Part shown: positions 2,516 through 16,505 of the stretch, one piece after another | Layout of the letters: each line of letters opens with the position of its first letter | Numbering within the stretch: position 1 is the first letter of the stretch | The notes under the pieces: generated by a model | What the model was told of the DNA's origin: nothing | The model's input: the letters and a program-made list of their open reading frames with translations, nothing else | Databases searched by the model: none | Position numbers and translations under genes: made by a program | Origin: Gemmatimonadales bacterium | GTDB lineage: Bacteria > Gemmatimonadota > Gemmatimonadetes > Gemmatimonadales > GWC2-71-9 | Length of the DNA stretch: 48,821 nt | Reading direction: 5' to 3' | Assembly: GCA_013820855.1 (NCBI GenBank) | Contig: JACDHV010000002.1 | Span: 1 to 48,821 of the forward strand

Positions 2516-2803
2516 TCAGCGCTCCTCCGCGGCCGGCGGCGAAACGGTGCAGCCGCGGCCCTGCCAGCCGATGGCGACGACGCGCCCATCCTCGACCAAG
2601 ACCGGTACGGTTCGCCCGCCGCCGGTCAGCCGGTGCAGCCGCACCAGCGCCGCCGGATCGCGCTCGACGTCGTACTCCACGAACTCACGGCCCTCCCACT
2701 CGAGCCGCTCACGACACTCCGCGGTGTAGGGACAGGCCGCGCTGCCGAACAGCTCCACCCGCCGCCGTGGCTCCGGCTCGGCCGCACCGGTCCGCTCAAC
2801 CAT
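2516..2803 (-). CDS. Glutaredoxin/thioredoxin-fold small protein (monothiol CPYT motif, Cys near the C-terminus)
   Basis: Taken from the internal ATG at 2803 of ORF 2516..2953: MVERTG...VELFGSAACPYTAECRERLEWEGREFVEYDVERDPAALVRLHRLTGGGRTVPVLVEDGRVVAIGWQGRGCTV.... The ATG overlaps the upstream stop codon by 8 nt (ATGGTTGA). Confidence 0.7.
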   Translation of the reverse strand: MVERTGAAEPEPRRRVELFGSAACPYTAECRERLEWEGREFVEYDVERDPAALVRLHRLTGGGRTVPVLVEDGRVVAIGWQGRGCTVSPPAAEER

Positions 2804-3974
2804 TCGCCAGCGCCTCCAGCGCGCCCCGCAGGACATGATAGATGGACGCCTGCACCTCCTGGATCCGCGGGATGTAGTCGGACCGCACGACGAGGGCGTG
2901 ATCGGCGAGGCCGCGACGCACGATTTCGCCACCATCGTATCCGAGCAGGGCAACAGTCAGCATGCCGCGGCGCCTCGCTTCCTCGAGCGCCACGATGATG
3001 TTGGCGGAACCGCCGCTGGTGGAGATGGCGAACGCGATGTCGGCGCTGCCGCCGTGAGCGACGAGCTGGCGCAGGAAGACCAGCTCGATACCGACGTCGT
3101 TCGCGATCGCGCTCAGGCTCGCCGGCTCGAGCGACAGCGACAGCGCGGGCACCGGATGCCAGCCGGACGGCGGGGCCACGCAGTCGAGCGCGAAATCGTT
3201 CGCATCGGTGGCCGAGCCGCCGTTGCCGAAGGTGAGGACGCGGCCGCCGCGGGCCACGCGCTCGTGAATCGCCGCGGCGGCTGCCACGATCGCGCCGGCC
3301 TGCTCTGCCGCAACGGCCGCACGCAGCGCCTCATCGTCCGCCGCCTTGGCCCGGATCGAGTCGGCGACCTGCGCAGCGATCCCGCCCATCTCCTGCTTCG
3401 CCGCGCCGAGGAACGGGTAGAGAAAGCCGGCGGCGCCCACCTCATGGCCGCGCTCCCGGTGTTCGAAGAAGACGTGCACCGTCTCCCACAGGGTATGGTA
3501 GAGGATCTCGACCAGCTCCTGGTGCACGAACGGGTCGCTCGACGGTATCGGCGGAGCATAGTCACCGGCGGGGCCGCACAGCGCGAAGGTCTGTGCGCCC
3601 CGCGCGCCCGCCGCATCCAGCGCGGCATCCACCTCCGGATCGCCGGCGGGGCCGGCGAAGCCCATCACGATATCCTCGCCGGTTACCAGTGCCGGTACCC
3701 ACTCGGGAAACGCGATGGAGAGGTCGAGCGCCGGCAGCGCCCGCTTGCCGACGATCACCGGATGCACAAACTCGACGGCTACGTGCTGGGCGTCGGTGGC
3801 GCAGGCGCCGCGGCCGAACGCGAGCAACCGCCCGCCGCGCAGGAAACGCTCCGCCATTTCACGGCAGGCGGCGGCGAGCGGCTCGGCCTCGTGCGCGAAG
3901 AAGGCGGCCGACGCGGCATTGCGCGCTAGGAGCGCCTCCTCGACGATGCGCGACGGGGAGAGGAGCGACGGCAC
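2796..3974 (-). CDS. Double SIS-domain (GmhA/phosphoheptose-isomerase-like) protein of the hydrogenase cluster
   Basis: 392-aa ORF with two SIS-like halves (FGRGACATDAQHVAVEF... and FGNGGSATDANDFALD...AISTSGGSANI). GTG start 6 nt after the hypE stop. Confidence 0.8.
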   Translation of the reverse strand: MPSLLSPSRIVEEALLARNAASAAFFAHEAEPLAAACREMAERFLRGGRLLAFGRGACATDAQHVAVEFVHPVIVGKRALPALDLSIAFPEWVPALVTGEDIVMGFAGPAGDPEVDAALDAAGARGAQTFALCGPAGDYAPPIPSSDPFVHQELVEILYHTLWETVHVFFEHRERGHEVGAAGFLYPFLGAAKQEMGGIAAQVADSIRAKAADDEALRAAVAAEQAGAIVAAAAAIHERVARGGRVLTFGNGGSATDANDFALDCVAPPSGWHPVPALSLSLEPASLSAIANDVGIELVFLRQLVAHGGSADIAFAISTSGGSANIIVALEEARRRGMLTVALLGYDGGEIVRRGLADHALVVRSDYIPRIQEVQASIYHVLRGALEALANG

Positions 3975-3980
3975 GGCGGT

Positions 3981-5018
3981 TCAACAGATCCTGGGGAGGG
4001 GATCGCCGACGAGCATGTCGACGATACGGGCGCCGCCGTACGGCGCCGTCGAGAGCACCGCGCCGGCGGGCTCGGTGCGGATCTCGCCGATCAGCGCGGC
4101 CGCCTCGCCGCCGGGGGTCGCTCGCACAGCGGCCAGCGCGGCGTCGGCGACCTCCGGAGCGAGCACTGCGAGGAACTGCCCCTCGTTGGCGATGTGCAGC
4201 GGATCGAGCCCGAGCAGCTCACACGCGCCGCGGACCTGGTCGCGCAGCGGGATCATCTCCTCCAGTAGCCCCACACCGAGCCGGGTGTCGACGGCCAGCT
4301 CATTCAGTGCGCTCGCCACGCCGCCGCGGGTCGGGTCGCGCATCCAGCGGAGCCCGTCGGCTGCGACGTCGAGCAACCGCTCCACGAACGGCAGCACCGG
4401 ACGCGTGTCGGAGCAGAGGCTCGCCTCGAAGTCGAGCTCGCCGCGGGCGAGCAGGATGGTGATGCCGTGGTCGCCGATCGGCCCGGAGAGGAGCACCCGA
4501 TCGCCCGGCCGGACCGCCGCGGGCGAGAGCCGGGCCCGCGGGTCGACGATGCCGAGACCGGTCGTGGTGATGTACATCCCGTCGGCCTTGCCGTGCTCCA
4601 CCACCTTCGTGTCGCCGCCGACGACGCCGACGCCCGCCCGCTCGGCGGCCGCAGCGATCGCCCGCACCTCGGCTTCGAGCACCGACGCCGCGAGCCCCGC
4701 CTCGAGCACGAGCGTGACCACGAGCGCGGCCGGACGGGCAGCCGCCATGGCGAGATCGTTCAGGGTTCCGTTCACCGCCAGTTCGCCGATCGACCCGCCG
4801 GGAAAGCGAAGCGGCCGCACCACGAAGGCGTCGGCCGTGAGCGCGACCCGTTCGGCGCCGAGCTCGAGCACGGCGGCGTCCATCAGGGGACCGAGGAGCG
4901 GTCCTCCGAGCAGCGGCGCGATGAGCCCCTCGACGAGCCGGCGGCTCGCCTTGCCGCCCGCCCCATGCGCCATTTCGATCTGCGGGTCACGGAAGCGGAC
5001 CGCGCCGGCGCTTCTCAT
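3981..5018 (-). CDS. hypE: Hydrogenase maturation protein HypE
   Basis: Internal ATG at codon 45 of ORF 3981..5150. The N-terminus is MRSAGAVRFRDPQIEMAHGAGGKASRRL and the C-terminus is the diagnostic ...DPLPRIC. ATGA overlap with the hypD stop. Confidence 0.95.
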   Translation of the reverse strand: MRSAGAVRFRDPQIEMAHGAGGKASRRLVEGLIAPLLGGPLLGPLMDAAVLELGAERVALTADAFVVRPLRFPGGSIGELAVNGTLNDLAMAAARPAALVVTLVLEAGLAASVLEAEVRAIAAAAERAGVGVVGGDTKVVEHGKADGMYITTTGLGIVDPRARLSPAAVRPGDRVLLSGPIGDHGITILLARGELDFEASLCSDTRPVLPFVERLLDVAADGLRWMRDPTRGGVASALNELAVDTRLGVGLLEEMIPLRDQVRGACELLGLDPLHIANEGQFLAVLAPEVADAALAAVRATPGGEAAALIGEIRTEPAGAVLSTAPYGGARIVDMLVGDPLPRIC

Positions 5019-6160
5019 CCGGCCGCGGCGGCCGGCGCGGGAGCCGCGTCTTCCTCCAACCGGGCGCGCCGGTGCGCGAAGTTGTAGTAGGCGGCGCACG
5101 CGCCCTCGGAGGACACCATCAGGGCGCCGACCGGATGCTCCGGCGTGCACTCGCGTCCGAACAGCTTGCAGCGGTGCGGCTTGAGCACGCCCTTCAGCAC
5201 CTCACCGCACTGCGCCGCCTTCGGATCGGTTACCCGGACACCGGGCAGCTCGAACCGGCGCTCGGCGTCGAAGTCGGCGTAGGCCGCTGAGACACCGAGC
5301 GCCGACTGGGAGATGAAGCCGAGTCCCCGCCACTCGAAATACGGCCGCAGTTCGAATGTCTCAGCCATTGCCTGGAGCGCGGGGAGGTTTCCCTCCCACG
5401 GCACCACCCGAGCGTACTGGTTTTCCACCTCCGCCCGGCCCTCCCGGAGCTGGCGCAGGATCATGACGATTCCCTGCAGGACGTCGAGTGGCTCGAAGCC
5501 GGACACGACGATCGGCCGGCCGTAATCGCGGGCCACGAATTCGTACGGACGGCAGCCGATGACGGTCGAAACGTGCCCGGGGCCGATGAATCCGTCGATG
5601 CGCATGTCGGGCGAATCGAGGATGGCGCGGATGGCGGGAATGATCGTGACGTGGTTGCTGAAGACGGTCAGGTTCGGCACGCCGAGGCTGCGGGCGCGCC
5701 GCAGCGTCAGCGCAGTGGACGGCGCCGTGGTTTCGAAGCCGATCGCGAAGAAGACGACCTGCCGATCAGGGTTGTCGCAGGCAAGCTTGAGCGCGTCGAG
5801 CGGCGAGTAGACCATCCGGATGTCGGCGCCGCGCGCGATGTGCTCAAGCGGACTGCCGCGGCGCCCCGGCACCCGCATCATGTCGCCGAACGCGGTGACG
5901 ATCGCGCCGTGCTCGACCGCCAGGGCGAGCCCGTCGTCCACGCGGCCCATCGGCAGCACGCACACCGGGCAGCCGGGGCCGTGCACCAGCTCGATGCTGT
6001 CCGGCAGGAGATCCTCGAGCCCGAAGCGATAGATCGCATGCGTGTGGCCGCCGCACACCTCCATGAACCGATAGTGGCGGCCGGGCTCCATGAGCCGGCG
6101 GATCTCGTCGGCGGTCCGGCGGATGAGCTGCGGGTCGCGGAACTCGTCCACGTACTTCAT
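5015..6160 (-). CDS. hypD: Hydrogenase maturation protein HypD
   Basis: Internal ATG at codon 115 of ORF 5015..6502: MKYVDEFRDPQL...EVCGGHTH...GPGCPVCV...FETTAP...GPGHVS. The upstream 114 codons are Arg/Gly-rich junk. ATGA overlap with the preceding gene. Confidence 0.95.
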   Translation of the reverse strand: MKYVDEFRDPQLIRRTADEIRRLMEPGRHYRFMEVCGGHTHAIYRFGLEDLLPDSIELVHGPGCPVCVLPMGRVDDGLALAVEHGAIVTAFGDMMRVPGRRGSPLEHIARGADIRMVYSPLDALKLACDNPDRQVVFFAIGFETTAPSTALTLRRARSLGVPNLTVFSNHVTIIPAIRAILDSPDMRIDGFIGPGHVSTVIGCRPYEFVARDYGRPIVVSGFEPLDVLQGIVMILRQLREGRAEVENQYARVVPWEGNLPALQAMAETFELRPYFEWRGLGFISQSALGVSAAYADFDAERRFELPGVRVTDPKAAQCGEVLKGVLKPHRCKLFGRECTPEHPVGALMVSSEGACAAYYNFAHRRARLEEDAAPAPAAAAG

Positions 6161-6411
6161 GGGACCGCCTCCCCCGCCGCGACCAGGCCGATGGCGACAC
6201 CCATGTGCACCAGCACGACGTCGCCCGGGCGCGCGTCCGGCACGAAATCGAGCGCCACCCCGGCGCGCGCACCGGTGCGGTCCTCGACCGTGGCGATGCC
6301 GGCCGGGGCGTCCAGCGCAATCACCCGGGCGGGGACCGCGACATCGCCGCAGGTGGTGCAGCCGTCCTGTTCCAGCGTACAGGTGCCGAAGCGGGTCAGG
6401 TCGTCGGTCAT
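6157..6411 (-). CDS. HypC/HupF-family chaperone, variant copy without the N-terminal MC motif
   Basis: Internal ATG at codon 135 of ORF 6157..6813: MTDDLTRFGTCTLEQDGCTTCGDVAVPARVIAL...GDVVLVHMGVAIGLV. The C-x-T-C-G-D block and the C-terminal VLVH.G.A block resemble HupF/HypC-like proteins. ATGA overlaps at both ends. Confidence 0.7.
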   Translation of the reverse strand: MTDDLTRFGTCTLEQDGCTTCGDVAVPARVIALDAPAGIATVEDRTGARAGVALDFVPDARPGDVVLVHMGVAIGLVAAGEAVP

Positions 6412-6674
6412 TCGAATTGGTATCCCTCGACTTCCTCGGCCGCCAGCGTCGCCTCGCCGAGCATGGTGAGCAGACGGAGCTGTTCCTCGGCCTGCTCGGC
6501 ACTGATGCGGCTCATGGCGAAGCCGACGTGAATCAGCACCCAGTCGTCCACCGCCAGGCCGTCGGGACGCAGCAGATCGACGTTCACCTTGCGGCGAACG
6601 CCGGTGACGTCGACGACGGCAAAACTCGGCTCGGCCGCGAACTCGACGATGCGGCCCGGGATGGCGAGACACAC
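6408..6674 (-). CDS. hypC: Hydrogenase maturation chaperone HypC
   Basis: 88 aa beginning MCLAIPGRIVEF, the canonical HypC N-terminus, followed by ...DDWVLIHVGFAM. GTG start. Confidence 0.9.
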   Translation of the reverse strand: MCLAIPGRIVEFAAEPSFAVVDVTGVRRKVNVDLLRPDGLAVDDWVLIHVGFAMSRISAEQAEEQLRLLTMLGEATLAAEEVEGYQFE

Positions 6675-6686
6675 GGGCGCGGCCGC

Positions 6687-6788
6687 CTACATGTCCCGCA
6701 TCTTGAGGTAGCGCCGTATTTCGGGATACTGGTGCACCAGCAGCATCCCCACCCCCGCCGCCACCGCGAGCAGCACGATCCGGCCCAT
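6687..6788 (-). CDS. 33-aa single-pass membrane micro-protein, absent from the ORF track
   Basis: Read by hand: ATG at 6788, TAG at 6689-6687. It encodes MGRIVLLAVAAGVGMLLVHQYPEIRRYLKMRDM. A purine-rich GAGAGGCGGTGG sequence lies upstream. It fills the only sizeable gap between the protease gene and hypC, with a hydrophobic helix followed by a basic tail. Confidence 0.45.
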   Translation of the reverse strand: MGRIVLLAVAAGVGMLLVHQYPEIRRYLKMRDM

Positions 6789-6802
6789 GACACCACCGCC
6801 TC

Positions 6803-7645
6803 TCATCTGGCACTCTCGTTTGAGGGTGACGCCGGCCACTCGCCGGCCGTCAGGTCCTGCACCAGCTTCTCGACCAGCCGCACCGCGCCGGCGACCGCGG
6901 TCTGCACCGGCGCGCTCAGCCGAGTGATGATTGCGGTCGGGTCGTGGTCTTCCGGAAACTGCTCCGGCTCGCAGCCGACCACCAGGGTTCGGGGTGGCTC
7001 CCCGCCGAGCCCGCGCACCAGGTGCAGGACGCGCACGGGGTCCATGCCGTGCGTCTCGACCGTTGGCGGCGCCGCATCGTCGAGCTCCGGCTCGAGCACG
7101 AACAGCGTGCCGGGTGCCTCGCCGCGCGGCATGGCATCGATCAGGATTGCGGCGTCGTAACCGTTCTGGAGCGCGTAGGCGAGATCGATGCCACGGATGC
7201 CGAACTCCCGGACCGTTACCCCCGGAGGCCAGCGCCGTTCCACGAGCGCCTGCGCAACCACCACACCGAATCCGTCGTCGCCCAGGAAGACGTTGCCGAT
7301 ACCGGCGACCAGGATCCGCGGCGCGCCGCGGGCCATGTCGTCATCGAGCGGCAGCGGCTCGACCTCGTCGGGCGCGAAGAAGAAGCGATGCGCCGGGAAC
7401 CGGCCTTCGCCGAGATCGCGACCCGGATCGTCGTTCACGGTGACGGCGAGCATCAGCTCGCCGCCGATGTCCTGTTCGATCGTCTCCACACGGGCGGTGC
7501 GGCCGGCGAGCACCATGTCGAAGGCGTCGCGGCCGGACCGCGGCCGGAGCCTCACCATGCTGCCGGTTCGCAGCTCGACACCGGCCACCTCGATGTTGGT
7601 GGGGGCGGGCCGGGCCGCGTCGCTCCAGAAATCCGCGCCGCTCAT
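6803..7645 (-). CDS. Hydrogenase maturation endopeptidase (HyaD/HupD family) with an in-frame ~103-aa N-terminal domain of unknown function
   Basis: The ATG at 7645 overlaps the upstream stop (ATGA). Residues 104-280 carry RILVAGIGNVFLGDDGFG...ILIDA...VETHGMDP, typical of the protease. Residues 1-103 (MSGADFWSDAARPAPTNIEVAGVELRTGSMVRLRPRSG...FFFAPDEVEPLP) have no recognised family. No stop codon separates the two parts, and there is no SD before the internal ATG at 7336. Confidence 0.85.
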   Translation of the reverse strand: MSGADFWSDAARPAPTNIEVAGVELRTGSMVRLRPRSGRDAFDMVLAGRTARVETIEQDIGGELMLAVTVNDDPGRDLGEGRFPAHRFFFAPDEVEPLPLDDDMARGAPRILVAGIGNVFLGDDGFGVVVAQALVERRWPPGVTVREFGIRGIDLAYALQNGYDAAILIDAMPRGEAPGTLFVLEPELDDAAPPTVETHGMDPVRVLHLVRGLGGEPPRTLVVGCEPEQFPEDHDPTAIITRLSAPVQTAVAGAVRLVEKLVQDLTAGEWPASPSNESAR

Positions 7646-8667
7646 TCGGCGCCGACGACGCGCAGCTCGCGCACCGCTCCGTGCAGGCGGGACAGCTCCT
7701 CCGGACCGAGCGCCATGCAGCGGTCGAGGATCTCGCGCGCCCGGGGATCTGAGTCGCGCATCTCGGCGCGCTCCTCGTCGGTGAGCGCGAGGATGTTCAG
7801 GATGAGGAGCTGATCGATCTCGCCGCCGTCGAAGAGGTCGCCGGGGCTCTCGGGGGCGATCCGGGGATAATCTCCGAGAATGATCGGGGCGGACAGCAGC
7901 GTGTGGCGCTCGCCAAGCTCGCCCACGAGCACGGGCCAGGCGCCGATGTTGCGGCACGCGGCGGCGGCGGCGGCGAGCTCCGCGGGCGGGTCGGTGAGCG
8001 ATACGAAGGCGCCGCCATTCGCCTGGACGGTGGCATGAGTCGAGATGAGCGCCCTCCGCTGCGCCGCCTCGCGACTGCCGCCGCTCCACGGCGTCGTGTT
8101 GGCGATTTCGATTCGGAGCCGCCAGAGCCCCGGCTGCACCGCCACCGCGCGGAGCGTGACGGCGCCCTGGATCCCGTCCCACGACCGCACCACGGCGCCG
8201 ACCGGCCGCCCCTCCTCGAGGACCGGCTCCTCGGCGGTCCCGGCGGCGATGTCGAGCGGCACCAGCCGCGGCGTTTCGAGTGCCGCCGGCGCCAGATCGT
8301 CCAGGATGACCTGGCGCTCGACCGCCTCCTCCCAGGCGAGGTGGCGGCGTCCGCCGGCGACCAGCTCGTCCACGTACCGTCGATTTCCATCCGCATCGCA
8401 CGCAACCCGTCGGTCGACGACCTGAAGGAACCGCACCCGGACCCGCAGCCGTGCCGCAGCCGGGTCGGCAGCCTCGAGGAGGCACTCGGTGACGATCCGC
8501 CAGGCGTCATCACCGCCGCGGGCGTCGCTCCACGCCTGCGGGTACACGCCACCGAAGGTCCAGCGCTGGCGGTTCTTCAGCGCGGAACGGCGGTACGGCC
8601 AGAGCAGGTAGCCCTCGTAGAGCACCGCCTGCGCGATGCGCTCGAGCGCGGCATCGGAGCCGCTCAT
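7642..8667 (-). CDS. 341-aa conserved-looking protein of unknown function in the hydrogenase operon
   Basis: ATG-initiated ORF that starts 1 nt after the preceding stop, and its own stop overlaps the next start (ATGA). Globular composition; no motif recognised. Confidence 0.8.
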   Translation of the reverse strand: MSGSDAALERIAQAVLYEGYLLWPYRRSALKNRQRWTFGGVYPQAWSDARGGDDAWRIVTECLLEAADPAAARLRVRVRFLQVVDRRVACDADGNRRYVDELVAGGRRHLAWEEAVERQVILDDLAPAALETPRLVPLDIAAGTAEEPVLEEGRPVGAVVRSWDGIQGAVTLRAVAVQPGLWRLRIEIANTTPWSGGSREAAQRRALISTHATVQANGGAFVSLTDPPAELAAAAAACRNIGAWPVLVGELGERHTLLSAPIILGDYPRIAPESPGDLFDGGEIDQLLILNILALTDEERAEMRDSDPRAREILDRCMALGPEELSRLHGAVRELRVVGAE

Positions 8668-8668
8668 G

Positions 8669-8893
8669 TCAGGGGGGGGAGAGGTTGGGCATGCGTGGGT
8701 CGATCGGGTTCCGGTTCTTGGCGTTGATTCCGGTGGACCGGGCGGCGGTGGAGGTGCCGTCGGGCAGATGCCCGTCCTGGGCCTCGTAGTTGCCGGGCGA
8801 GTTGCCCTGCTTGACGCCCTTGACGTGCGTGGGCGCGCCCGGCGAGGTCTGTGGCTTGCCGACGGTCAGGTTGTTCGACTGTTTCGACTTCAT
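8669..8893 (-). CDS. 74-aa hydrophilic, low-complexity (N/Q/K/G/P/S/T-rich) protein
   Basis: Internal ATG at codon 38 of ORF 8669..9004, preceded by a strong SD (GGGGGAGGTGGCACGATG): MKSKQSNNLTVGKPQTSPGAPTHVKGVKQGNSPGNYEAQDGHLPDGTSTAARSTGINAKNRNPIDPRMPNLSPP. ATGA overlap with the upstream gene. Confidence 0.6.
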   Translation of the reverse strand: MKSKQSNNLTVGKPQTSPGAPTHVKGVKQGNSPGNYEAQDGHLPDGTSTAARSTGINAKNRNPIDPRMPNLSPP

Positions 8894-9552
8894 CGTGCCA
8901 CCTCCCCCGGTTCGGACGACGCCGGCGCCGCGCGGCGCCGCAGATCGTCGAAGAACAGATCCAGTTTCTCCCATACGGTATCGCCGCCGCTGAGACCCTT
9001 CCACTCGCCGCGCAGCAGGGCGACGAGGCGATAGCAGACATCGATCGGGACGAGCCAGCAGTCGCGCGCCCCCCGCGCCCGGTTGACGAGCACCGCCTCG
9101 ACGTCGCTCTGCAGCTCACGGATTACCGGGTGCGCGGCTTCGAGCGCGGACCACTCCGGTGGGTCGATGGTCGCGTCCGTCGGGCCCAGCGCGCCCGGGA
9201 ACACCGCCACCGGCCCGCTCTCGGAATGCCGGACGAGGAATGCGAGCGCGACCGGAATCCGGAGCGTCTCCCAGACAGCGTCGTCGTGTGCCAGCTCCGG
9301 GAGCGCCTGAAGGCGCTCGGGAACCAGCCGGTAGCGTCCGCCATGCGTCGCCGAGAGGTCGAGCACCATGGCGCAGGGCCGGCAGGCGCAGCGCAGCAGG
9401 CCGGCCGACAGTTCCACCAGATGCTGATGCTCGGGCGGAATCGGTGTGGCGCAGAGATCGCAGCGTTCGGGCGCCCCCGGATCATCCGCGGAGCGCGGCG
9501 GTGCCGCGGCAGTGGCACCGCGCCGGATCAGACCGCGCAACCGGCCGGTCAT
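8890..9552 (-). CDS. 220-aa Cys-rich protein (recalled to resemble DUF5947-type proteins of group 1h clusters)
   Basis: Internal ATG at 9552 with an ATGA overlap to the NifU-like gene. The N-terminal region carries CDLCATPIPPEHQHLVELSAGLLRCACRPC, five Cys arranged like a metal site. Confidence 0.75.
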   Translation of the reverse strand: MTGRLRGLIRRGATAAAPPRSADDPGAPERCDLCATPIPPEHQHLVELSAGLLRCACRPCAMVLDLSATHGGRYRLVPERLQALPELAHDDAVWETLRIPVALAFLVRHSESGPVAVFPGALGPTDATIDPPEWSALEAAHPVIRELQSDVEAVLVNRARGARDCWLVPIDVCYRLVALLRGEWKGLSGGDTVWEKLDLFFDDLRRRAAPASSEPGEVAR

Positions 9553-10085
9553 CGCCCGTTGCCGAGCTGCACCAGCATCGGGGCGGCGGGCGGCGCGGGT
9601 GCGGAAGCGCCGTTCTCCGCCTCGATGCCCGTGAGCTCCGGCGCGGCCCGGAGCACCGCCTCCTCGACCGAGCTGTGCAGCGTAACGGCCGACGACGGGC
9701 ACCCCTTGCAGCTGCCGGTGAGCCGCACGCGCGCGATGCCGCCGTCTACGGCGAGCAGCTCGACATCGCCGCCGTGCGAGCGGATGTAGGGCCGCACCTC
9801 GTCGAGCGCCGCCCCGACCCGCGCCTCCACCGCATCGGGATGCAGCTCGTGCAGCATCAGCAGATGACCCACGAGCGGATCGGCGGTGAAGCGGTCCAGC
9901 AGGCCGGGGCCGCCGACATCCGAGGCGGCAGCCACGATGCGGGCGAGCGCCGCGCCGTAGAGCTCGACGATTCCCTGCACCGCCGCGAGCGCGGCGTCGC
10001 GGGCGGCGGGATCCTCGATCAGTTCGACCTGCGCGAGCAGCGCCTCGACCTCGGCGGCCCGCGCATCGAGCGACGGGTCGCTCAC
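9549..10085 (-). CDS. NifU C-terminal-domain (Nfu-like) Fe-S scaffold-type protein
   Basis: GTG at 10085 overlaps the hhyL stop (GTGA). The sequence is MSDPSLDARAAEVEALL... and the C-terminal half carries LDEVRPYIRSHGGDVELLAVDGGIARVRLTGSCKGCPSSAVTL, the NifU/Nfu signature with CxxC. Confidence 0.85.
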   Translation of the reverse strand: MSDPSLDARAAEVEALLAQVELIEDPAARDAALAAVQGIVELYGAALARIVAAASDVGGPGLLDRFTADPLVGHLLMLHELHPDAVEARVGAALDEVRPYIRSHGGDVELLAVDGGIARVRLTGSCKGCPSSAVTLHSSVEEAVLRAAPELTGIEAENGASAPAPPAAPMLVQLGNGR

Positions 10086-11881
10086 CCGCCCAGCCCGTAC
10101 TGTGACGAATGCACCTGCTCGAGCACCTTGCCGTTGCCGAGATACATGTGCACGCCGCACGGGAGGCAGGGATCGAAGCTGCGCACGGCGCGCATGATGT
10201 CGATGCCCTTGAAGTCGTCGGGGCCGTTCTCCTCGAAGATCGGCATGCCCTGCACCGCATCCTCGTACGGCCCGGGAGTCCCGAGACTGTCGCGGGGGCT
10301 GCCGTTCCAGGGAGTCGGCGGGTAGGGGTGATAGTTGGCGATCTTGCCGTCGCGGATCACCATGTGATGCGAGAGCACCCCCCGCACCGCCTCGTGGAAG
10401 CCGCAGCCGATGGCGTTCTCCGGCACCTTGAAATCGGTGAACGTCTTGGTCCTTCCGGCCCGCACCTCGTCCATGGCCTTCTCGAGGAAGAAGATGGCCT
10501 GCGCGGCGGCGTACGCGATGAAGTACGCGCGCGCCCGGTCCCGCTCGATGGTGTTGGACCACTGCGGGATCTTCCACTCGAGCGTGGCCGCGGGATGCTT
10601 GAGGCTCTTCGGCAGATTGATCTGCACGCTGTGCCCGGTGGCCTTCACGTAGCCGGTGTCGACGGTCCCGGCGAGCGCGGTGGCCCAGAAGCGCGCGAGC
10701 GGACCGCCGCCGGTGTCAAGCGCGAGGTGATCACCGCTCTGGGGATGGAACCAGCGCGGGCTCATGACCCAACTGTACTTGTCGTCGAAGTTCCGCTTCT
10801 GGGGGCGCGGAATCGTCGTCTGGTTCCACGGATGCCGCCGGTCCACCGGGTTCCCGAGCGGATCGGTGGACACGAACATCTCATCGTTCTCCCAGTCGTC
10901 GTAGAACGAGCTGCCGAGCAGGATGCGGATGCCGAGATTTATGTCCACCAGATCGGTGGTGATGAGCTTGCCGTCCACGACGATGCCCGGGGTGACGTAC
11001 ATCGCGTTGCCCCACTCGTTCATCGTGCGGTACTGGTAATCGCAGACGTCCGGGTTCTGGAACGCGCCCCAGCACCCGAGCAGGATGCGCCGCTGCCCCA
11101 CCCGCTCATATCCCGGCAACGCCTCGTACCAGAAATCGAAGATGTCGTCGTTCATCGCGACCGCTTCCTTGACGAAGTCGAGGATGGAGACGAGGCGCGA
11201 CAGGTAGTCGGTGAAGACCTGGGTGGTGGCGATGGTGCCGACGCCGCCGGGATAGACGGTGGACGGATGGACGTGGCGCCCTTCCATGAGGCAGAACATT
11301 TCGCGGGTGACGCGGCTGACCCTCAGCGCCTCCCGGTACACCGCCCCGGTGAAGGGGTTGAAGGCCCGCATGATGTCGCCGATGGTGCGGTATCCGTGGA
11401 TTTCGGAGTGCGGCGCGGGGGTGCGGTTCGCCTTGTCGAGGACGCCCGGATTGGTCTGCTTGACCATCTCCTCGCACCAGTCCACGAAGACCAGGTTGTC
11501 CTGGAAGATGGTGTGGTCGAACATGTACTCGGCGGCCTCGCCGAGGTTCACGATCCACTCCGCCAGGTTGGGCGGCTGGATGCCGTACGCCATCTGCTGG
11601 GCGTAGGTGGAGCAGACGGTGTGGTTATCGCCGCAGATGCCGCAGATCCGGCTGGTGATGAAGCCGGCGTCGCGGGGGTCCTTCCCCTTCATGAAGACGC
11701 TGTAGCCGCGGAAGATGGAGGAAGTGCTGTGGCACTCCGCGACCTCCCGGTTCTCAAAATCGATCTTGGTGTAGATGCCGAGATTCCCGACGATCCGGGT
11801 GATCGGATCCCAGTGCATCTCGACCAGCTTGCCGCGCCCCGCCGTGGAGGGGGCACCGGCGGCTACGTCTCGGGTGGCCAT
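10082..11881 (-). CDS. hhyL: [NiFe]-hydrogenase large subunit, group 1h (formerly group 5) type
   Basis: Internal ATG at 11881, preceded by a GAGGAG SD. The L1 motif is TSRICGICGDNH and the L2 motif is SFDPCLPCGVH, followed by a 21-aa C-terminal extension (MYLGNGKVLEQVHSSQYGLGG) of the kind removed by the maturation protease. 599 aa. Confidence 0.95.
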   Translation of the reverse strand: MATRDVAAGAPSTAGRGKLVEMHWDPITRIVGNLGIYTKIDFENREVAECHSTSSIFRGYSVFMKGKDPRDAGFITSRICGICGDNHTVCSTYAQQMAYGIQPPNLAEWIVNLGEAAEYMFDHTIFQDNLVFVDWCEEMVKQTNPGVLDKANRTPAPHSEIHGYRTIGDIMRAFNPFTGAVYREALRVSRVTREMFCLMEGRHVHPSTVYPGGVGTIATTQVFTDYLSRLVSILDFVKEAVAMNDDIFDFWYEALPGYERVGQRRILLGCWGAFQNPDVCDYQYRTMNEWGNAMYVTPGIVVDGKLITTDLVDINLGIRILLGSSFYDDWENDEMFVSTDPLGNPVDRRHPWNQTTIPRPQKRNFDDKYSWVMSPRWFHPQSGDHLALDTGGGPLARFWATALAGTVDTGYVKATGHSVQINLPKSLKHPAATLEWKIPQWSNTIERDRARAYFIAYAAAQAIFFLEKAMDEVRAGRTKTFTDFKVPENAIGCGFHEAVRGVLSHHMVIRDGKIANYHPYPPTPWNGSPRDSLGTPGPYEDAVQGMPIFEENGPDDFKGIDIMRAVRSFDPCLPCGVHMYLGNGKVLEQVHSSQYGLGG

Positions 11882-11895
11882 GGCGGGTCTCCTCG

Positions 11896-12954
11896 TCAGC
11901 GATTCAGGTGGCGCGGCGCGTAGCCGGTCGTGAGCGCCGGGCGGTTGTGGCGCCACTTCGGCTCCTTGTTCACCGTGTCGTTGGTGATGGCGCGGAGCCG
12001 GCGGAAGAGCTTGCCGTACGCGCCGATCATCGTGGAGGACACGGTGCCGCCGGGCGGCTGGTCCATGAACGGCATGAACTTGTCGGGGAAGCCGGGCATG
12101 GTGCAGCCGATGCAGATGCCGCCGACGTTGGGGCAGCCCCCGATTCCGTTCATCCATCCGCGCTTCGGCACGTTGCAGTTAACGACCGGACCCCAGCAGC
12201 CGATCTTCACCTGGCACTTGGGGCTGTTGTAGTCGTGCGCGAAATCGCCCTGCTCGTAGTAACCCGCGCGGTCGCAGCCTTCGTGCACCGTCTTGCCGAA
12301 GAGCCAGGTGGGACGGAGCTGGTCGTCGAGCGGAATGACCGGCGCCTTGCCCGCCGCCTGGAAGAGCAGCCAGGTGAGGGTCTCCATGAAGTTGTCGGGC
12401 TGGACCGGGCAGCCGGGGACGTTCACGATGGGGAGGCCGCCGGCGGAGCGGAAATCCCAGCCGAGGTAGTCGGCGAGACCCATGCAGCCGGTGGGATTGC
12501 CGGCCATGGCGTGAATCCCGCCGTAGGTGGCACAGGTGCCGGCGGCGACGACGCCCCAGGCGCCGGGCGCCAGCCGGTCGATCCACTCGTTGACCGTGAT
12601 CGGCTCGCCGGTGGCGGGGTCGTTCCCCATCGAGGTCCAGTAGCCCTCGCCGTTGATCTGCTCGTTGGGAATGGAGCCCTCGATGACGAGCACATACGCC
12701 GCACCGAGCTCGCCGCGCGCCGCCTTGAAGAACGGCTCGAGGAAGTCGCCCTGCCCTCCGCCCATACTCGGCGAGAGCACCTTGTTGTGCAGGTGCACCT
12801 TCGGGAGCCCGGGGATCAGGCCGAGTACCACGTCCTCTATGCTCGGCTGGGTGGCCGCCGTGATGGAAATGGTGTCGCCGTCACAGCTTAGCCCTTCCGA
12901 AATCCACAGGACGTGGACCTCGTCCACCCCGCCGCCGCTGGTCGTCTCATCCAT
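11896..12954 (-). CDS. hhyS: [NiFe]-hydrogenase small subunit, group 1h type, without a Tat signal
   Basis: 352 aa: MDETTSGGGVDEVHVLWISEGLSCDGDT...GTCATYGG...PGCPVQPDN...CWGPVVNCNVPKRGW...CPNVGGICIGC. There is no RRxFxK twin-arginine leader. A strong GAGGAGGA SD precedes the ATG. Confidence 0.95.
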   Translation of the reverse strand: MDETTSGGGVDEVHVLWISEGLSCDGDTISITAATQPSIEDVVLGLIPGLPKVHLHNKVLSPSMGGGQGDFLEPFFKAARGELGAAYVLVIEGSIPNEQINGEGYWTSMGNDPATGEPITVNEWIDRLAPGAWGVVAAGTCATYGGIHAMAGNPTGCMGLADYLGWDFRSAGGLPIVNVPGCPVQPDNFMETLTWLLFQAAGKAPVIPLDDQLRPTWLFGKTVHEGCDRAGYYEQGDFAHDYNSPKCQVKIGCWGPVVNCNVPKRGWMNGIGGCPNVGGICIGCTMPGFPDKFMPFMDQPPGGTVSSTMIGAYGKLFRRLRAITNDTVNKEPKWRHNRPALTTGYAPRHLNR

Positions 12955-14927: not shown

Positions 14928-15177
14928 GTTTAGGTCGTGGTGGTGGACGAGGTCTGGACCTCGGTGGGCTCCACCAATTTCGACAACCGGTCGTTCCGGC
15001 TGAACGACGAGGCCAACCTCAACATCCTCGACGCCGGGCTCGCCGCCGGCCAGGCGACGGTGTTCGAGGCCGACAAGGCGAGAGCCCGCCGGATCACATT
15101 CGATGATTGGCGCCGAGCGCCCCCGCCGGGAGCGGGCCGTCGAGTGGCTCGCGGGCCTGCTGCGGCTCCAGCTTTAG
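14889..15177 (+). pseudogene. C-terminal relic of a phospholipase D / cardiolipin synthase family gene (second HKD motif onward)
   Basis: The plus frame reads ...[12 protein letters not shown][TAG][29 protein letters not shown]. This is an H-x-K-x4-D...GS.N.D.RS motif with a stop codon (14931-14933) exactly where the catalytic Lys codon belongs. A frameshift in the C-run near 15120 separates ...ITFDDWRR from the typical tail [16 protein letters not shown] (TAG at 15175-15177). Everything upstream of ~14889 is missing. Confidence 0.75.
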
Positions 15178-15185
15178 GAGAGTCC

Positions 15186-16505
15186 ATGAGTTTTCTGCGC
15201 CGGTGGTGGGCCGGGGTCTGGTCCAGCCTGTGGTTCATCCCGGGCCTGATCGTGGTGGGGTCCGCCGGTGCGGCCGTGCTGCTGGTCGAGATGACCCTGC
15301 CCTTCGGCGACGCAGCCCTCCGGTGGCCTCGGCTCCTGGGAGCGGGGGCGGAGGGATCCCGGGGCATGCTGACGGCGGTCGCCACCTCGATGATCACCGT
15401 CGCCGGCGTGGTGTTCTCCATCACGATCGTGGTCCTGTCGCTGGCCTCCAGTCAGTACACCTCGCGGGTCCTCCGGAGCTTCATGATCGACCGGGCCAAT
15501 CAGGCGGTCCTGGGCGTGTTCGTCGGCATCTTCGCCTACTGCCTGGTCGTCCTGCGCACCATTCGGAGTGGGGACGAAGGGGTGTTCGTCCCCTCGCTCG
15601 CGGTTCTCGGCGGAGTGGTGCTGGCCTTCGTGGGCATAGGCTTCCTGGTCTACTTCATCCACCACATCGCGACCGCCATCCAGGCCTCGTCGATCCTTGC
15701 CGCGGTGGCGGAGGACACGCTCCGGGCCGTGGACCGGATGTTTGCCGAACAGGTGGGTGGGGCGGCGAATGATGAGGCGGCCTCCGCCAGGGAACAGGAC
15801 GCGCGGGTGCGGCACCGGCTGCCGGTCCCGGCGGGCCGGTCGGGCTACATCCAACTGGTGGACGACAAGGTGCTGCTCGAGGTCGCCCATCGGGGCGACA
15901 CGGTGGTACGAATGGAACGGAGCGTCGGCGAGTTCGTGATCGAGGGGGCCGTGCTGGCGGTAATCGAGGTGGAGGAAGCCGGCACTGCGCGGGAGGACAT
16001 CGGACGTCTGGCGGGCGCCTTCACCATCGACCGACAGCGCAGCGTTGACCAGGACCCGGCCTACGGGATCCGTCAGATCGTGGATGTGGCGCTGAAGGCG
16101 CTCTCGCCCGGCATCAACGACAGCACGACCGCGGTCATGTGCGTGGACTATCTGACGGCCATCCTCAGCCGGGTAGCCTGCCGCCACATCCCTTCGCCCC
16201 TGCGTACTCGGGACGGCGTTCTTCGGGTCATCGCCCGGGGGCCGTCGTTCGGCACGTTGATGGACGAAGCCTTCGATCAGATCCGGCAGCACGGCGGCGG
16301 AAACGTGGCGGTGCTGGGACGGCTGATCTGGGCCTACCGGTCGCTTTCCGAGCTTTCGATCGGGCCCGCCCAGCGCCGCCTCCTGCTCGACCATGTCGCC
16401 GCGCTGCGGGAAGCGATCCAGCGCACGGTCCCGTCACCCACCGAGCGCCGGGAGCTCGAGGCCGATCTGGATGAGCTGACCCTCCGGTTGGTCGAACCGG
16501 CCTAA
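15186..16505 (+). CDS. Multi-pass membrane protein (recalled DUF2254 family)
   Basis: Internal ATG at codon 84 of ORF 14937..16505, after an AGGAG SD: MSFLRRWWAGVWSSLWFIPGLIVVG...SMITVAGVVFSITIVVLSLASSQYTSRVLRSF. 439 aa. Confidence 0.8.
   Translation: MSFLRRWWAGVWSSLWFIPGLIVVGSAGAAVLLVEMTLPFGDAALRWPRLLGAGAEGSRGMLTAVATSMITVAGVVFSITIVVLSLASSQYTSRVLRSFMIDRANQAVLGVFVGIFAYCLVVLRTIRSGDEGVFVPSLAVLGGVVLAFVGIGFLVYFIHHIATAIQASSILAAVAEDTLRAVDRMFAEQVGGAANDEAASAREQDARVRHRLPVPAGRSGYIQLVDDKVLLEVAHRGDTVVRMERSVGEFVIEGAVLAVIEVEEAGTAREDIGRLAGAFTIDRQRSVDQDPAYGIRQIVDVALKALSPGINDSTTAVMCVDYLTAILSRVACRHIPSPLRTRDGVLRVIARGPSFGTLMDEAFDQIRQHGGGNVAVLGRLIWAYRSLSELSIGPAQRRLLLDHVAALREAIQRTVPSPTERRELEADLDELTLRLVEPA

Follow-up and report, generated by a model that had tools for sequence, protein, structure and literature searches.

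Group 1h [NiFe]-hydrogenases are thought to be responsible for much of the uptake of atmospheric H2 by soil. Here we describe the genes that accompany one such enzyme on contig JACDHV010000002.1 of a Gemmatimonadales bacterium, in a 48,821-nt stretch (hereafter the window; contig G+C 70%) in which the hhy genes all lie on the minus strand and four of them, called G1 to G4 here, sit between the large-subunit gene hhyL and the gene of a maturation endopeptidase (the protease). The closest described system is that of Cupriavidus necator plasmid pHG1, where PHG064 to PHG070 (hofK, hofG, PHG066-069 and a protease) are annotated in the order small subunit, large subunit, NifU family, DUF5947, DUF6084, a 476-aa hypothetical protein and protease, with the hyp genes next. 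Except for DUF6084, this order matches that of the window, the C. necator HhyL is 75% identical to the window's, and plasmids of Streptomyces and Mycobacterium carry the same order as pHG1. In Mycobacterium smegmatis, HhyE (MSMEG_2718) and HucE have been described as putative Fe-S proteins needed for H2 oxidation, and a strain from which hhyE has been deleted shows no Hhy activity, not even when nitroblue tetrazolium (NBT) serves as artificial acceptor in zymograms (PMC6883350). As a whole, then, the block is not new: it is a known set of conserved hypothetical genes, one member of which has published genetics. The original prediction, which was made from the sequence of the window by itself, went too far in presenting it as an uncharacterised module: it corresponds to PHG066-PHG069, with PHG068 missing, and to the mycobacterial genes from MSMEG_2718/2717 onward, and its second protein, G2, belongs to DUF5947.

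We read the block as this lineage's version of the group 1h accessory cassette, the main job of which is, on balance, probably to build the enzyme in air and not to transport electrons. A scan with a G4 profile, with one genome per species, gave 597 confirmed relatives, of which the best 80 loci were used; with nine others these make up a comparison set of 89 loci, against all of which every component was searched by tblastn. The 80 loci span Actinomycetota, Chloroflexota, Binatia, Gemmatimonadota, Acidobacteriota, Myxococcota (Polyangiaceae), Planctomycetota (Phycisphaerales) and Burkholderiales, and the order hhyS-hhyL-NifU-DUF5947-(G3)-DUF6084-G4-protease is kept in all 89 as far as each contig reaches. 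In the window, the NifU-family, DUF5947 and PHG069-like genes follow one another in that order, directly 3' of the group 1h pair hhyS-hhyL and 5' of the maturation endopeptidase gene, with no DUF6084 gene between them. The original prediction held that these genes are not passengers and that a loss of synteny with hhySL in other genomes would refute this; across the 89 loci synteny is retained, so the claim survives for this sample. Relative to pHG1, the window is reversed on two genes, in that pHG1 has DUF6084 (PHG068), overlapping the DUF5947 gene, and no G3, whereas the window has G3 and no DUF6084. In addition, a domain of about 100 aa that is fused to PHG069 in pHG1 is fused to the protease in the window, and the two loci fall in different major clades of a neighbour-joining (NJ) tree of HhyL plus G4.

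The structural genes are those of a group 1h enzyme. The small-subunit gene hhyS (11896-12954, minus strand; 352 aa; identified as an open reading frame (ORF) and by homology) is followed after a 14-nt gap by hhyL (10082-11881, minus strand; 599 aa), and HhyS shares 72-85% identity with its counterparts in 43 complete related loci. HhyL contains TSRICGICGDNH as its L1 motif and SFDPCLPCGVH as its L2 motif, both of which have been described as signatures of groups 1h/5 (PMC5364354). HofG of C. necator (PDB 5AA5; 579 aa), the sole group 1h large subunit in the PDB, aligns to HhyL residues 11-578 with E = 0, and the endopeptidase removes the C-terminal extension of 21 aa that follows His578. In sequence and profile searches, the large subunit was the only match to 5AA5, no chain of which is related to G2, G3 or G4; our literature search found no group 1h cryo-EM structure.

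The four genes between hhyL and the protease are tightly coupled, and the coordinates originally given for them, with 4-nt overlaps or a 1-nt gap at the junctions, proved correct. G1 starts with GTG inside a GTGA overlap with the hhyL stop, the G1/G2 and G2/G3 junctions are ATGA overlaps, and the G3 stop is separated from the G4 start by 1 nt. Three database entries from a Gemmatimonadales bacterium (H0X69_00335/00340/00345) are identical to proteins of the region. Long ORFs that run antisense or out of frame, e.g., at 10109-11923 and 6944-7813 on the plus strand, are the usual artefact of 70% G+C and not genes.

The evidence that bears most directly on a role in assembly comes from G4 and the protease. 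G4 (7642-8667, minus strand; 341 aa) has more than 7396 homologues at E <= 1e-3, with 55-68% identity across phyla and 58 invariant columns. It had been described as lacking any recognisable motif, which is right insofar as it matches no Pfam or NCBIfam family and no Pfam domain was found in its homologues among the matches listed, yet it belongs to a very large and well-conserved family. It is 44-46% identical to C. necator PHG069 and homologous to the N-terminal ~340 aa of that protein. The AlphaFold2 (AF2) model of G4 (predicted local distance difference test, pLDDT, 84; predicted template modelling score, pTM, 0.82) shows a large beta core (57-260), one helix at the N-terminus and a bundle of helices at the C-terminus; confidence is low for the invariant stretch at ~267-275. 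Foldseek searches of the PDB with this model gave no fold match at E <= 0.001 (best template modelling score, TM, 0.25), and PDB sequence and profile searches were empty.

In the comparison loci, G4 always lies 5' of the protease. The whole protease ORF of the window (6803-7645, minus strand; 280 aa) starts in an ATGA overlap with the G4 stop, and its HycI/HupD match covers only residues ~110-261, i.e., the endopeptidase domain at 6803-7330 (TIGR00072, E 6.2e-32, 110.6 bits against a cut-off of 47.45; PF01750, E 1.9e-08). The remaining N-terminal extension of ~105 aa (7331-7645) has no Pfam or PDB match and had been overlooked in the original prediction, as had a 39-aa peptide gene downstream of the protease. 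This extension is a mobile domain, joined to the protease in 68 loci, to G4 in 10 (8 loci plus the two annotated plasmid records, L088 and L089) and free-standing in 9. Alternation of a domain between neighbouring genes is a classic indication that the two products cooperate. This fusion link between G4 and the protease, which is new, places G4 at the large-subunit processing step and points to assembly rather than to electron transfer; we propose G4 as a putative large-subunit maturation factor.

The first gene of the block, G1 (9549-10085, minus strand; 178 aa), encodes a short-form, Nfu-type HhyE. The NifU-C-domain protein with a CKGC motif that had been recognised directly after hhyL was borne out: residues 92-154 match Pfam NifU (PF01106, E 5.6e-22, 78.1 bits against a cut-off of 27), the single CxxC lies in GSCKGCPSS, and Nfu/NFU1 domains in the PDB, among them CnfU, NFU1 and the NifU C-terminal domain, match with E values from 4.6e-21 to 1e-3. 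Characterised Nfu-type proteins (NFU1/NfuA) are Fe-S cluster carriers. The carriers 2Z51, 2M5O, 1VEH and 1XHJ align with G1 residues ~82-161, including the CxxC (E 4.6e-21 to 7e-10), but they lack its helical N-terminal half of ~90 aa, which precedes the Nfu domain and the ~24 residues after it, and G1 differs from them further in being dedicated to a hydrogenase operon. G1 scores below the cut-offs of the whole-protein models TIGR02000 (45.4 versus 273.3 bits) and TIGR03341 (38 versus 269.35 bits), and what it shares with NifU proper and NfuA is the Nfu domain only.

Compared with M. smegmatis HhyE, G1 is alike in its position after hhyL and in its NifU-like CxxC domain, per the published description, but it has no counterpart of the C-terminal domain that carries two more CxxC motifs. 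It corresponds instead to the truncated HhyE class of PMC6883350, the published genetics covering a form other than the short one. Fe-S delivery, one of the roles originally suggested for the block, is reasonable for G1 in view of its Nfu-type domain and of the loss of Hhy activity in the hhyE deletion. That NBT cannot rescue this deletion is what would be expected of an assembly factor and not of a missing acceptor, and it argues for an assembly role of HhyE; the fact that G1 carries no second redox domain, unlike long forms of 288-298 aa, is counted on the same side. We also observed that the NifU-family gene comes in two forms, short (164-200 aa, as in the window) and long (288-301 aa, in L003, L005, L007 and L089), both of them within the G3-bearing clade described below. 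The long forms have a Rieske-like C-terminal domain in some loci, and in L007 the Rieske match is weak. The idea that G1 and G2 are a split HhyE was rejected, as the C-terminal domain of long HhyE is different and a separate DUF5947 gene still follows it.

G2 (8890-9552, minus strand; 220 aa) is a full-length DUF5947 protein (PF19372, E 6.6e-63, 212 bits against a cut-off of 25, model positions 1-176 of 177) and is 40% identical to C. necator PHG067, the DUF5947 gene of pHG1 likewise being the second after the large subunit. The five-Cys cluster first noted in it, CDLC...CACRPC, is present, but G2 has seven Cys in total, of which six (C31, C34, C55, C57, C60 and C173) are invariant in 48 homologues together with H42 and H44. 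This Cys6His2 set makes G2 a probable metal-binding protein. The deposited annotation of 175 aa (P0391) starts 45 codons late and loses C31 and C34; the 220-aa model is preferred, as its start in the ATGA overlap agrees with both the Pfam model and the coverage by homologues. The AF2 model (pLDDT 83.8) shows two N-terminal beta hairpins that bear the Cys motifs, followed by an alpha/beta domain; Foldseek found nothing in the PDB at E <= 0.001 (TM <= 0.25), and PDB sequence and profile searches were empty. PHG067 and MSMEG_2717 have been named as homologues and as a proposed electron acceptor (PMC6883350). Elsewhere in the literature searched, DUF5947 is not mentioned and MSMEG_2715-2717 appear only in expression tables.

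In the usual cassette, a DUF6084 gene (PHG068 in pHG1) lies between G3 and G4, where the window has only the 1-nt gap at 8667-8669, and its absence had not been noticed before. Searching the 48.8-kb window by tblastn with four DUF6084 proteins gave no match (best E 0.14), by which a relocation within the window is rejected. DUF6084 is present in every comparison locus that covers the position except L006, from a sister Gemmatimonadales metagenome-assembled genome (MAG). The window and L006 are sisters in the HhyL+G4 tree, and the next-nearest G3 relatives keep DUF6084. Because the two sister loci share only 68% G4 identity while their other cassette genes are intact, this natural deletion in a small Gemmatimonadales clade, another new observation, is likely to be old and tolerated, unless the gene has moved elsewhere in the genome. 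Nor is the loss explained by DUF6084 being a paralogue of G4 or G2, a possibility that was rejected at hhalign probabilities of <= 0.3%. Since G3 is kept where DUF6084 is deleted, G3 does not depend on it.

G3 (8669-8893, minus strand; 74 aa) is the least familiar member of the cassette. Its composition had been called atypical for a GC-rich genome, and it is: N 11%, K 8%, G 11% and P 14%, with N+K at about 2% in the neighbouring proteins. It is hydrophilic, has no hydrophobic core and no Cys, and finds no Pfam, NCBIfam or PDB family, the Pfam result being null even at E <= 10. Such features, and the position directly 5' of G4, which in the window has no Shine-Dalgarno (SD) sequence of its own (+2.9 kcal/mol), might suggest that G3 is no functional protein at all, i.e., a chance ORF or a leader whose SD restarts translation for G4 and the protease. 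Against this, there are 609 homologues of 66-78 aa with 62-77% identity, and 22 of ~73 columns, from G12 to P73 at the extreme C-terminus, are invariant, including H23, Y36, H42, R52 and D65. In addition, the in-frame G+C at third codon positions is 0.92, G3 is conserved better than G1, G2 and G4 in most loci, and it occupies the same place in 59/59 loci of its clade, including those where DUF6084, and not G4, comes next. We therefore consider a non-functional G3 extremely improbable and, as judged from conservation, already contradicted; the homologues and invariant columns indicate a real gene, compositionally odd but not noise.

The G3 family comprises 236 clusters in a representative library at 50% identity, nearly all of them stand-alone proteins of 55-85 aa, and shares the core H..G...GN..G.Y....GH...G.STA.RSTG......PIDP..PN..P inside hhy clusters, to which the G3 of the window conforms. 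Long G3 fusions (P0353, P0354, P0328, P0383 and P0369) are mostly artefacts, namely frameshifted, Arg-rich mistranslations; one DUF5947-G3 fusion, P0266, which lacks the first CxxC, appears genuine. An ankyrin-like repeat was also rejected, as the PDB yielded only weak matches to designed consensus ankyrins (E 0.005-3) and no helix-forming hydrophobic pattern. The small size, Gly content (11%) and marked hydrophilicity of G3 could alternatively be those of a hydrophilin or LEA-like protectant. In dormant cells G2 and G4 would then shield the enzyme against O2 or drying, the block would take no part in assembly or in electron transfer, and group 1h enzymes are indeed expressed in starved or dormant cells (PMC6776052, PMC4767420). 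Nevertheless, the position-specific invariance of 22/~73 residues is unlike typical hydrophilins, the operon is strictly linked with the endopeptidase and hyp genes, and G3 has no KGG, LEA or CsbD match even at E <= 10, so that we regard stress protection as very unlikely.

To follow the distribution of G3, six-frame translations of the 89 comparison loci and the window were scanned with a hidden Markov model (HMM). G3 was found in 76 of these 90 sequences, always in hhy clusters. Of the 14 negatives, four are incomplete contigs, and the remaining ten comprise six Acidobacteriota, the plasmid loci of Streptomyces and Mycobacterium, C. necator and a Burkholderiales MAG. In the HhyL+G4 tree, nine of these ten group with a Blastocatellia locus, L073, in a single clade; the tenth (L070) was left out of the tree because its hhyL match is too incomplete. 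In the other clade, clade B, G3 is present in all 59 loci. L073 itself encodes a divergent G3 (3782-4018; HMM E about 1e-8) between NifU and DUF5947, the sole G3 in the otherwise G3-less clade. G3 is thus a distinct family that marks the larger clade and is undescribed in the literature searched. Since C. necator falls in the G3-less clade, the sole solved group 1h enzyme comes from there.

Strengths of the SDs, expressed as anti-SD duplex energies, suggest that G3 differs from its neighbours in expression. In the window, G3 has the strongest signal of the operon (-12.3 kcal/mol), as had been claimed, ahead of hhyS (-11.6) and hhyL (-8.7), with G1, G2, G4 and the protease at -4.8 or weaker. 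Median values across loci are -9.5 for hhyS, -8.5 for hhyL and -8.6 for G3, compared with -6.4 for G1, -5.6 for G2, -2.9 for DUF6084, -7.5 for G4 and -6.5 for the protease extension. Over the 43 complete loci, median identity to the window proteins is 81% for HhyS, 76% for HhyL, 60% for G3, 57% for the protease domain, 56% for the protease extension, 55% for G4, 50% for G1 and 46% for G2, and G3 is the best-conserved accessory protein in 28/43 loci. The four proteins had all been put forward as stoichiometric partners of the enzyme; SD strength and conservation fit this for G3 only, and the weak SDs of G1, G2 and G4, along with the link of G4 to the endopeptidase by fusion, speak against it for the others.

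G3 may accordingly be a candidate abundant partner or enzyme subunit. A precedent for an additional non-catalytic subunit encoded beside the structural genes is HucM, described as a scaffold that forms the third subunit of Huc, a group 2a hydrogenase (PMC10017518), which we take as a model for the 74-aa, hydrophilic G3 by analogy. We raise, as a tentative and somewhat doubtful idea, that G3 is an unrecognised third subunit of the most widespread group 1h clade, an extended peptide that would wrap a conserved surface of HhySL; if so, it would control oligomerisation, partner or quinone access, or stability. Such a subunit would have escaped notice because the G3-less clade is home both to C. 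necator, with its solved structure, and to the mycobacterial locus studied here.

With these data we can weigh assembly against electron transfer. Beyond the Nfu domain, we infer function from what can be observed directly, i.e., gene structure, families, synteny, fusions, clades and the ranks of SDs and conservation. If the block were an electron-transfer module, G1 and/or G2 would bind HhyS with stable Fe-S clusters and pass electrons from the distal cluster toward the quinone pool; that they do so is in our view unlikely, as is the accompanying suggestion that G3, G4 and the DUF6893 peptide encoded downstream of the protease would help in membrane docking. The conserved CxxC of G1, the invariant Cys6His2 of G2, the place of the cassette beside the structural genes, the Rieske-like domain of long HhyE forms elsewhere and the proposal of PHG067/MSMEG_2717 as the acceptor (PMC6883350) would all agree with such a module. 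However, the G1 of the window is the short, Nfu-only form, of a family whose characterised members are cluster carriers. NBT fails to rescue the hhyE deletion (PMC6883350), the SDs of G1 and G2 are weak across loci, unlike those of the structural genes, and G4 is tied to a protease and not to a redox protein. Moreover, 5AA5 has no such subunit, and purified Huc consists of HucS, HucL and HucM only (PMC10017518), which means that HucE is not part of the Huc enzyme.

Several points nevertheless weigh against a cassette devoted to assembly, and some of them also favour electron transfer. HhyE co-migrates with HhyS/HhyL on native gels (cited in PMC6883350), which fits a bound partner. The operon encodes no cytochrome b or other electron acceptor and, apart from the 39-aa DUF6893 peptide, no membrane anchor, and the Cys6His2 of G2 could hold a redox-active cluster, as was proposed for PHG067 (cited in PMC6883350). 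The AF2 models of G2 and G4 matched no known chaperone or maturation fold in the PDB by Foldseek. Methylacidiphilum has hhyS-hhyL-hupD and no hhyE anywhere in the genome (PMC6688271, PMC5364354), and it oxidises H2 with this group 1h enzyme (PMC6688271, PMC5364354, PMC7174314), so the cassette is not needed for every group 1h enzyme. Mirror-tree comparisons of G3 with each neighbour gave correlations of 0.31-0.48 with everything and partial correlations of <= 0.27, singling out no partner. We would also like to note that duplex energy is a proxy for protein level and that gene starts outside the window were chosen by rule, which makes the SD values indicative only.

On the side of assembly, the cassette runs straight into the hyp maturation genes, which supports that reading. 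O2-tolerant group 1d hydrogenases offer an analogous arrangement, with enzyme-specific helper genes (HoxL, O, Q, R, T and V, HoxR being a rubredoxin) between the structural and hyp genes. Among these helpers is a Cys-rich protein that is needed for aerobic maturation (PMC6883350, citing Fritsch 2014). The window proteins gave no Pfam hits to the group 1d accessory families and no PDB fold matches, and the likeness is one of analogy only.

If the cassette does build the enzyme, G1 would assemble or hold a labile Fe-S cluster on CKGC and hand clusters to apo-HhyS, its presumed client. G2 would bind Zn or Fe-S through its Cys6His2 and, in the role of a chaperone or redox helper, might join G1 in acting on the small subunit. 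G4 would act on HhyL near the C-terminal cleavage, probably docking to the endopeptidase through the ~100-aa domain, and in most lineages DUF6084 would act on HhyL with the two of them. Where DUF6084 has apparently been deleted, in the small Gemmatimonadales clade, hhyS, hhyL and the rest of the cassette are still intact ORFs. G3 would be made in amounts nearer to those of HhyS/HhyL than to those of the helpers and would most likely fold onto a conserved surface of a partner, either HhySL or the DUF5947 protein.

Downstream of the cassette, the genes continue with DUF6893, two hypC/hupF genes, hypD, hypE, a SIS-domain gene and hypF. The first is an uncalled 39-aa ORF (6687-6806, minus strand; MRGGGVMGRIVLLAVAAGVGMLLVHQYPEIRRYLKMRDM) in an ATGA overlap with the protease stop, and its product matches Pfam DUF6893 (PF21833, E 3.2e-10). 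The same family is found 3' of the protease in L003, L005, L090 and the P0125 contig. Nothing else in the hhy operon is hydrophobic or membrane-like, and the peptide, a single hydrophobic helix, could serve to tether to the membrane an enzyme for which no anchor is known. The two HypC/HupF-family genes stand in tandem at 6157-6674 on the minus strand, one at 6408-6674 (MCLAIPGRIVEF...) and the other at about 6160-6420 (HupF_HypC, 1.3e-11), the second with a Cys-rich N-terminal stretch (GTCTLEQDGCTTCGD). The SIS-domain protein (2796-3974, minus strand; 392 aa) is encoded between hypE and hypF, and C. necator, L002 and L003 also have SIS-domain genes in their hhy clusters. On the other side of the structural genes, just past a divergent hypA/hypB, a predicted DUF2254 membrane protein of 523 aa with a PLD-like N-terminal fragment is encoded at 14934-16505 on the plus strand. 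Finally, the gene name "hhaABC" is used inconsistently in the literature; genes so named are co-induced with hhyLS in starved Thermomicrobium (PMC6776052).

These findings bear on the assembly of group 1h enzymes in air and on their connection to the respiratory chain. Across eight phyla, the accessory cassette is nearly invariant. DUF6084, otherwise constant, may be dispensable if it is not encoded elsewhere in the genome, which helps to rank the proteins of the cassette for genetics. G3, a conserved 74-residue protein with expression signals like those of the structural genes and absent from the C. necator model enzyme, is a concrete and cheap target.

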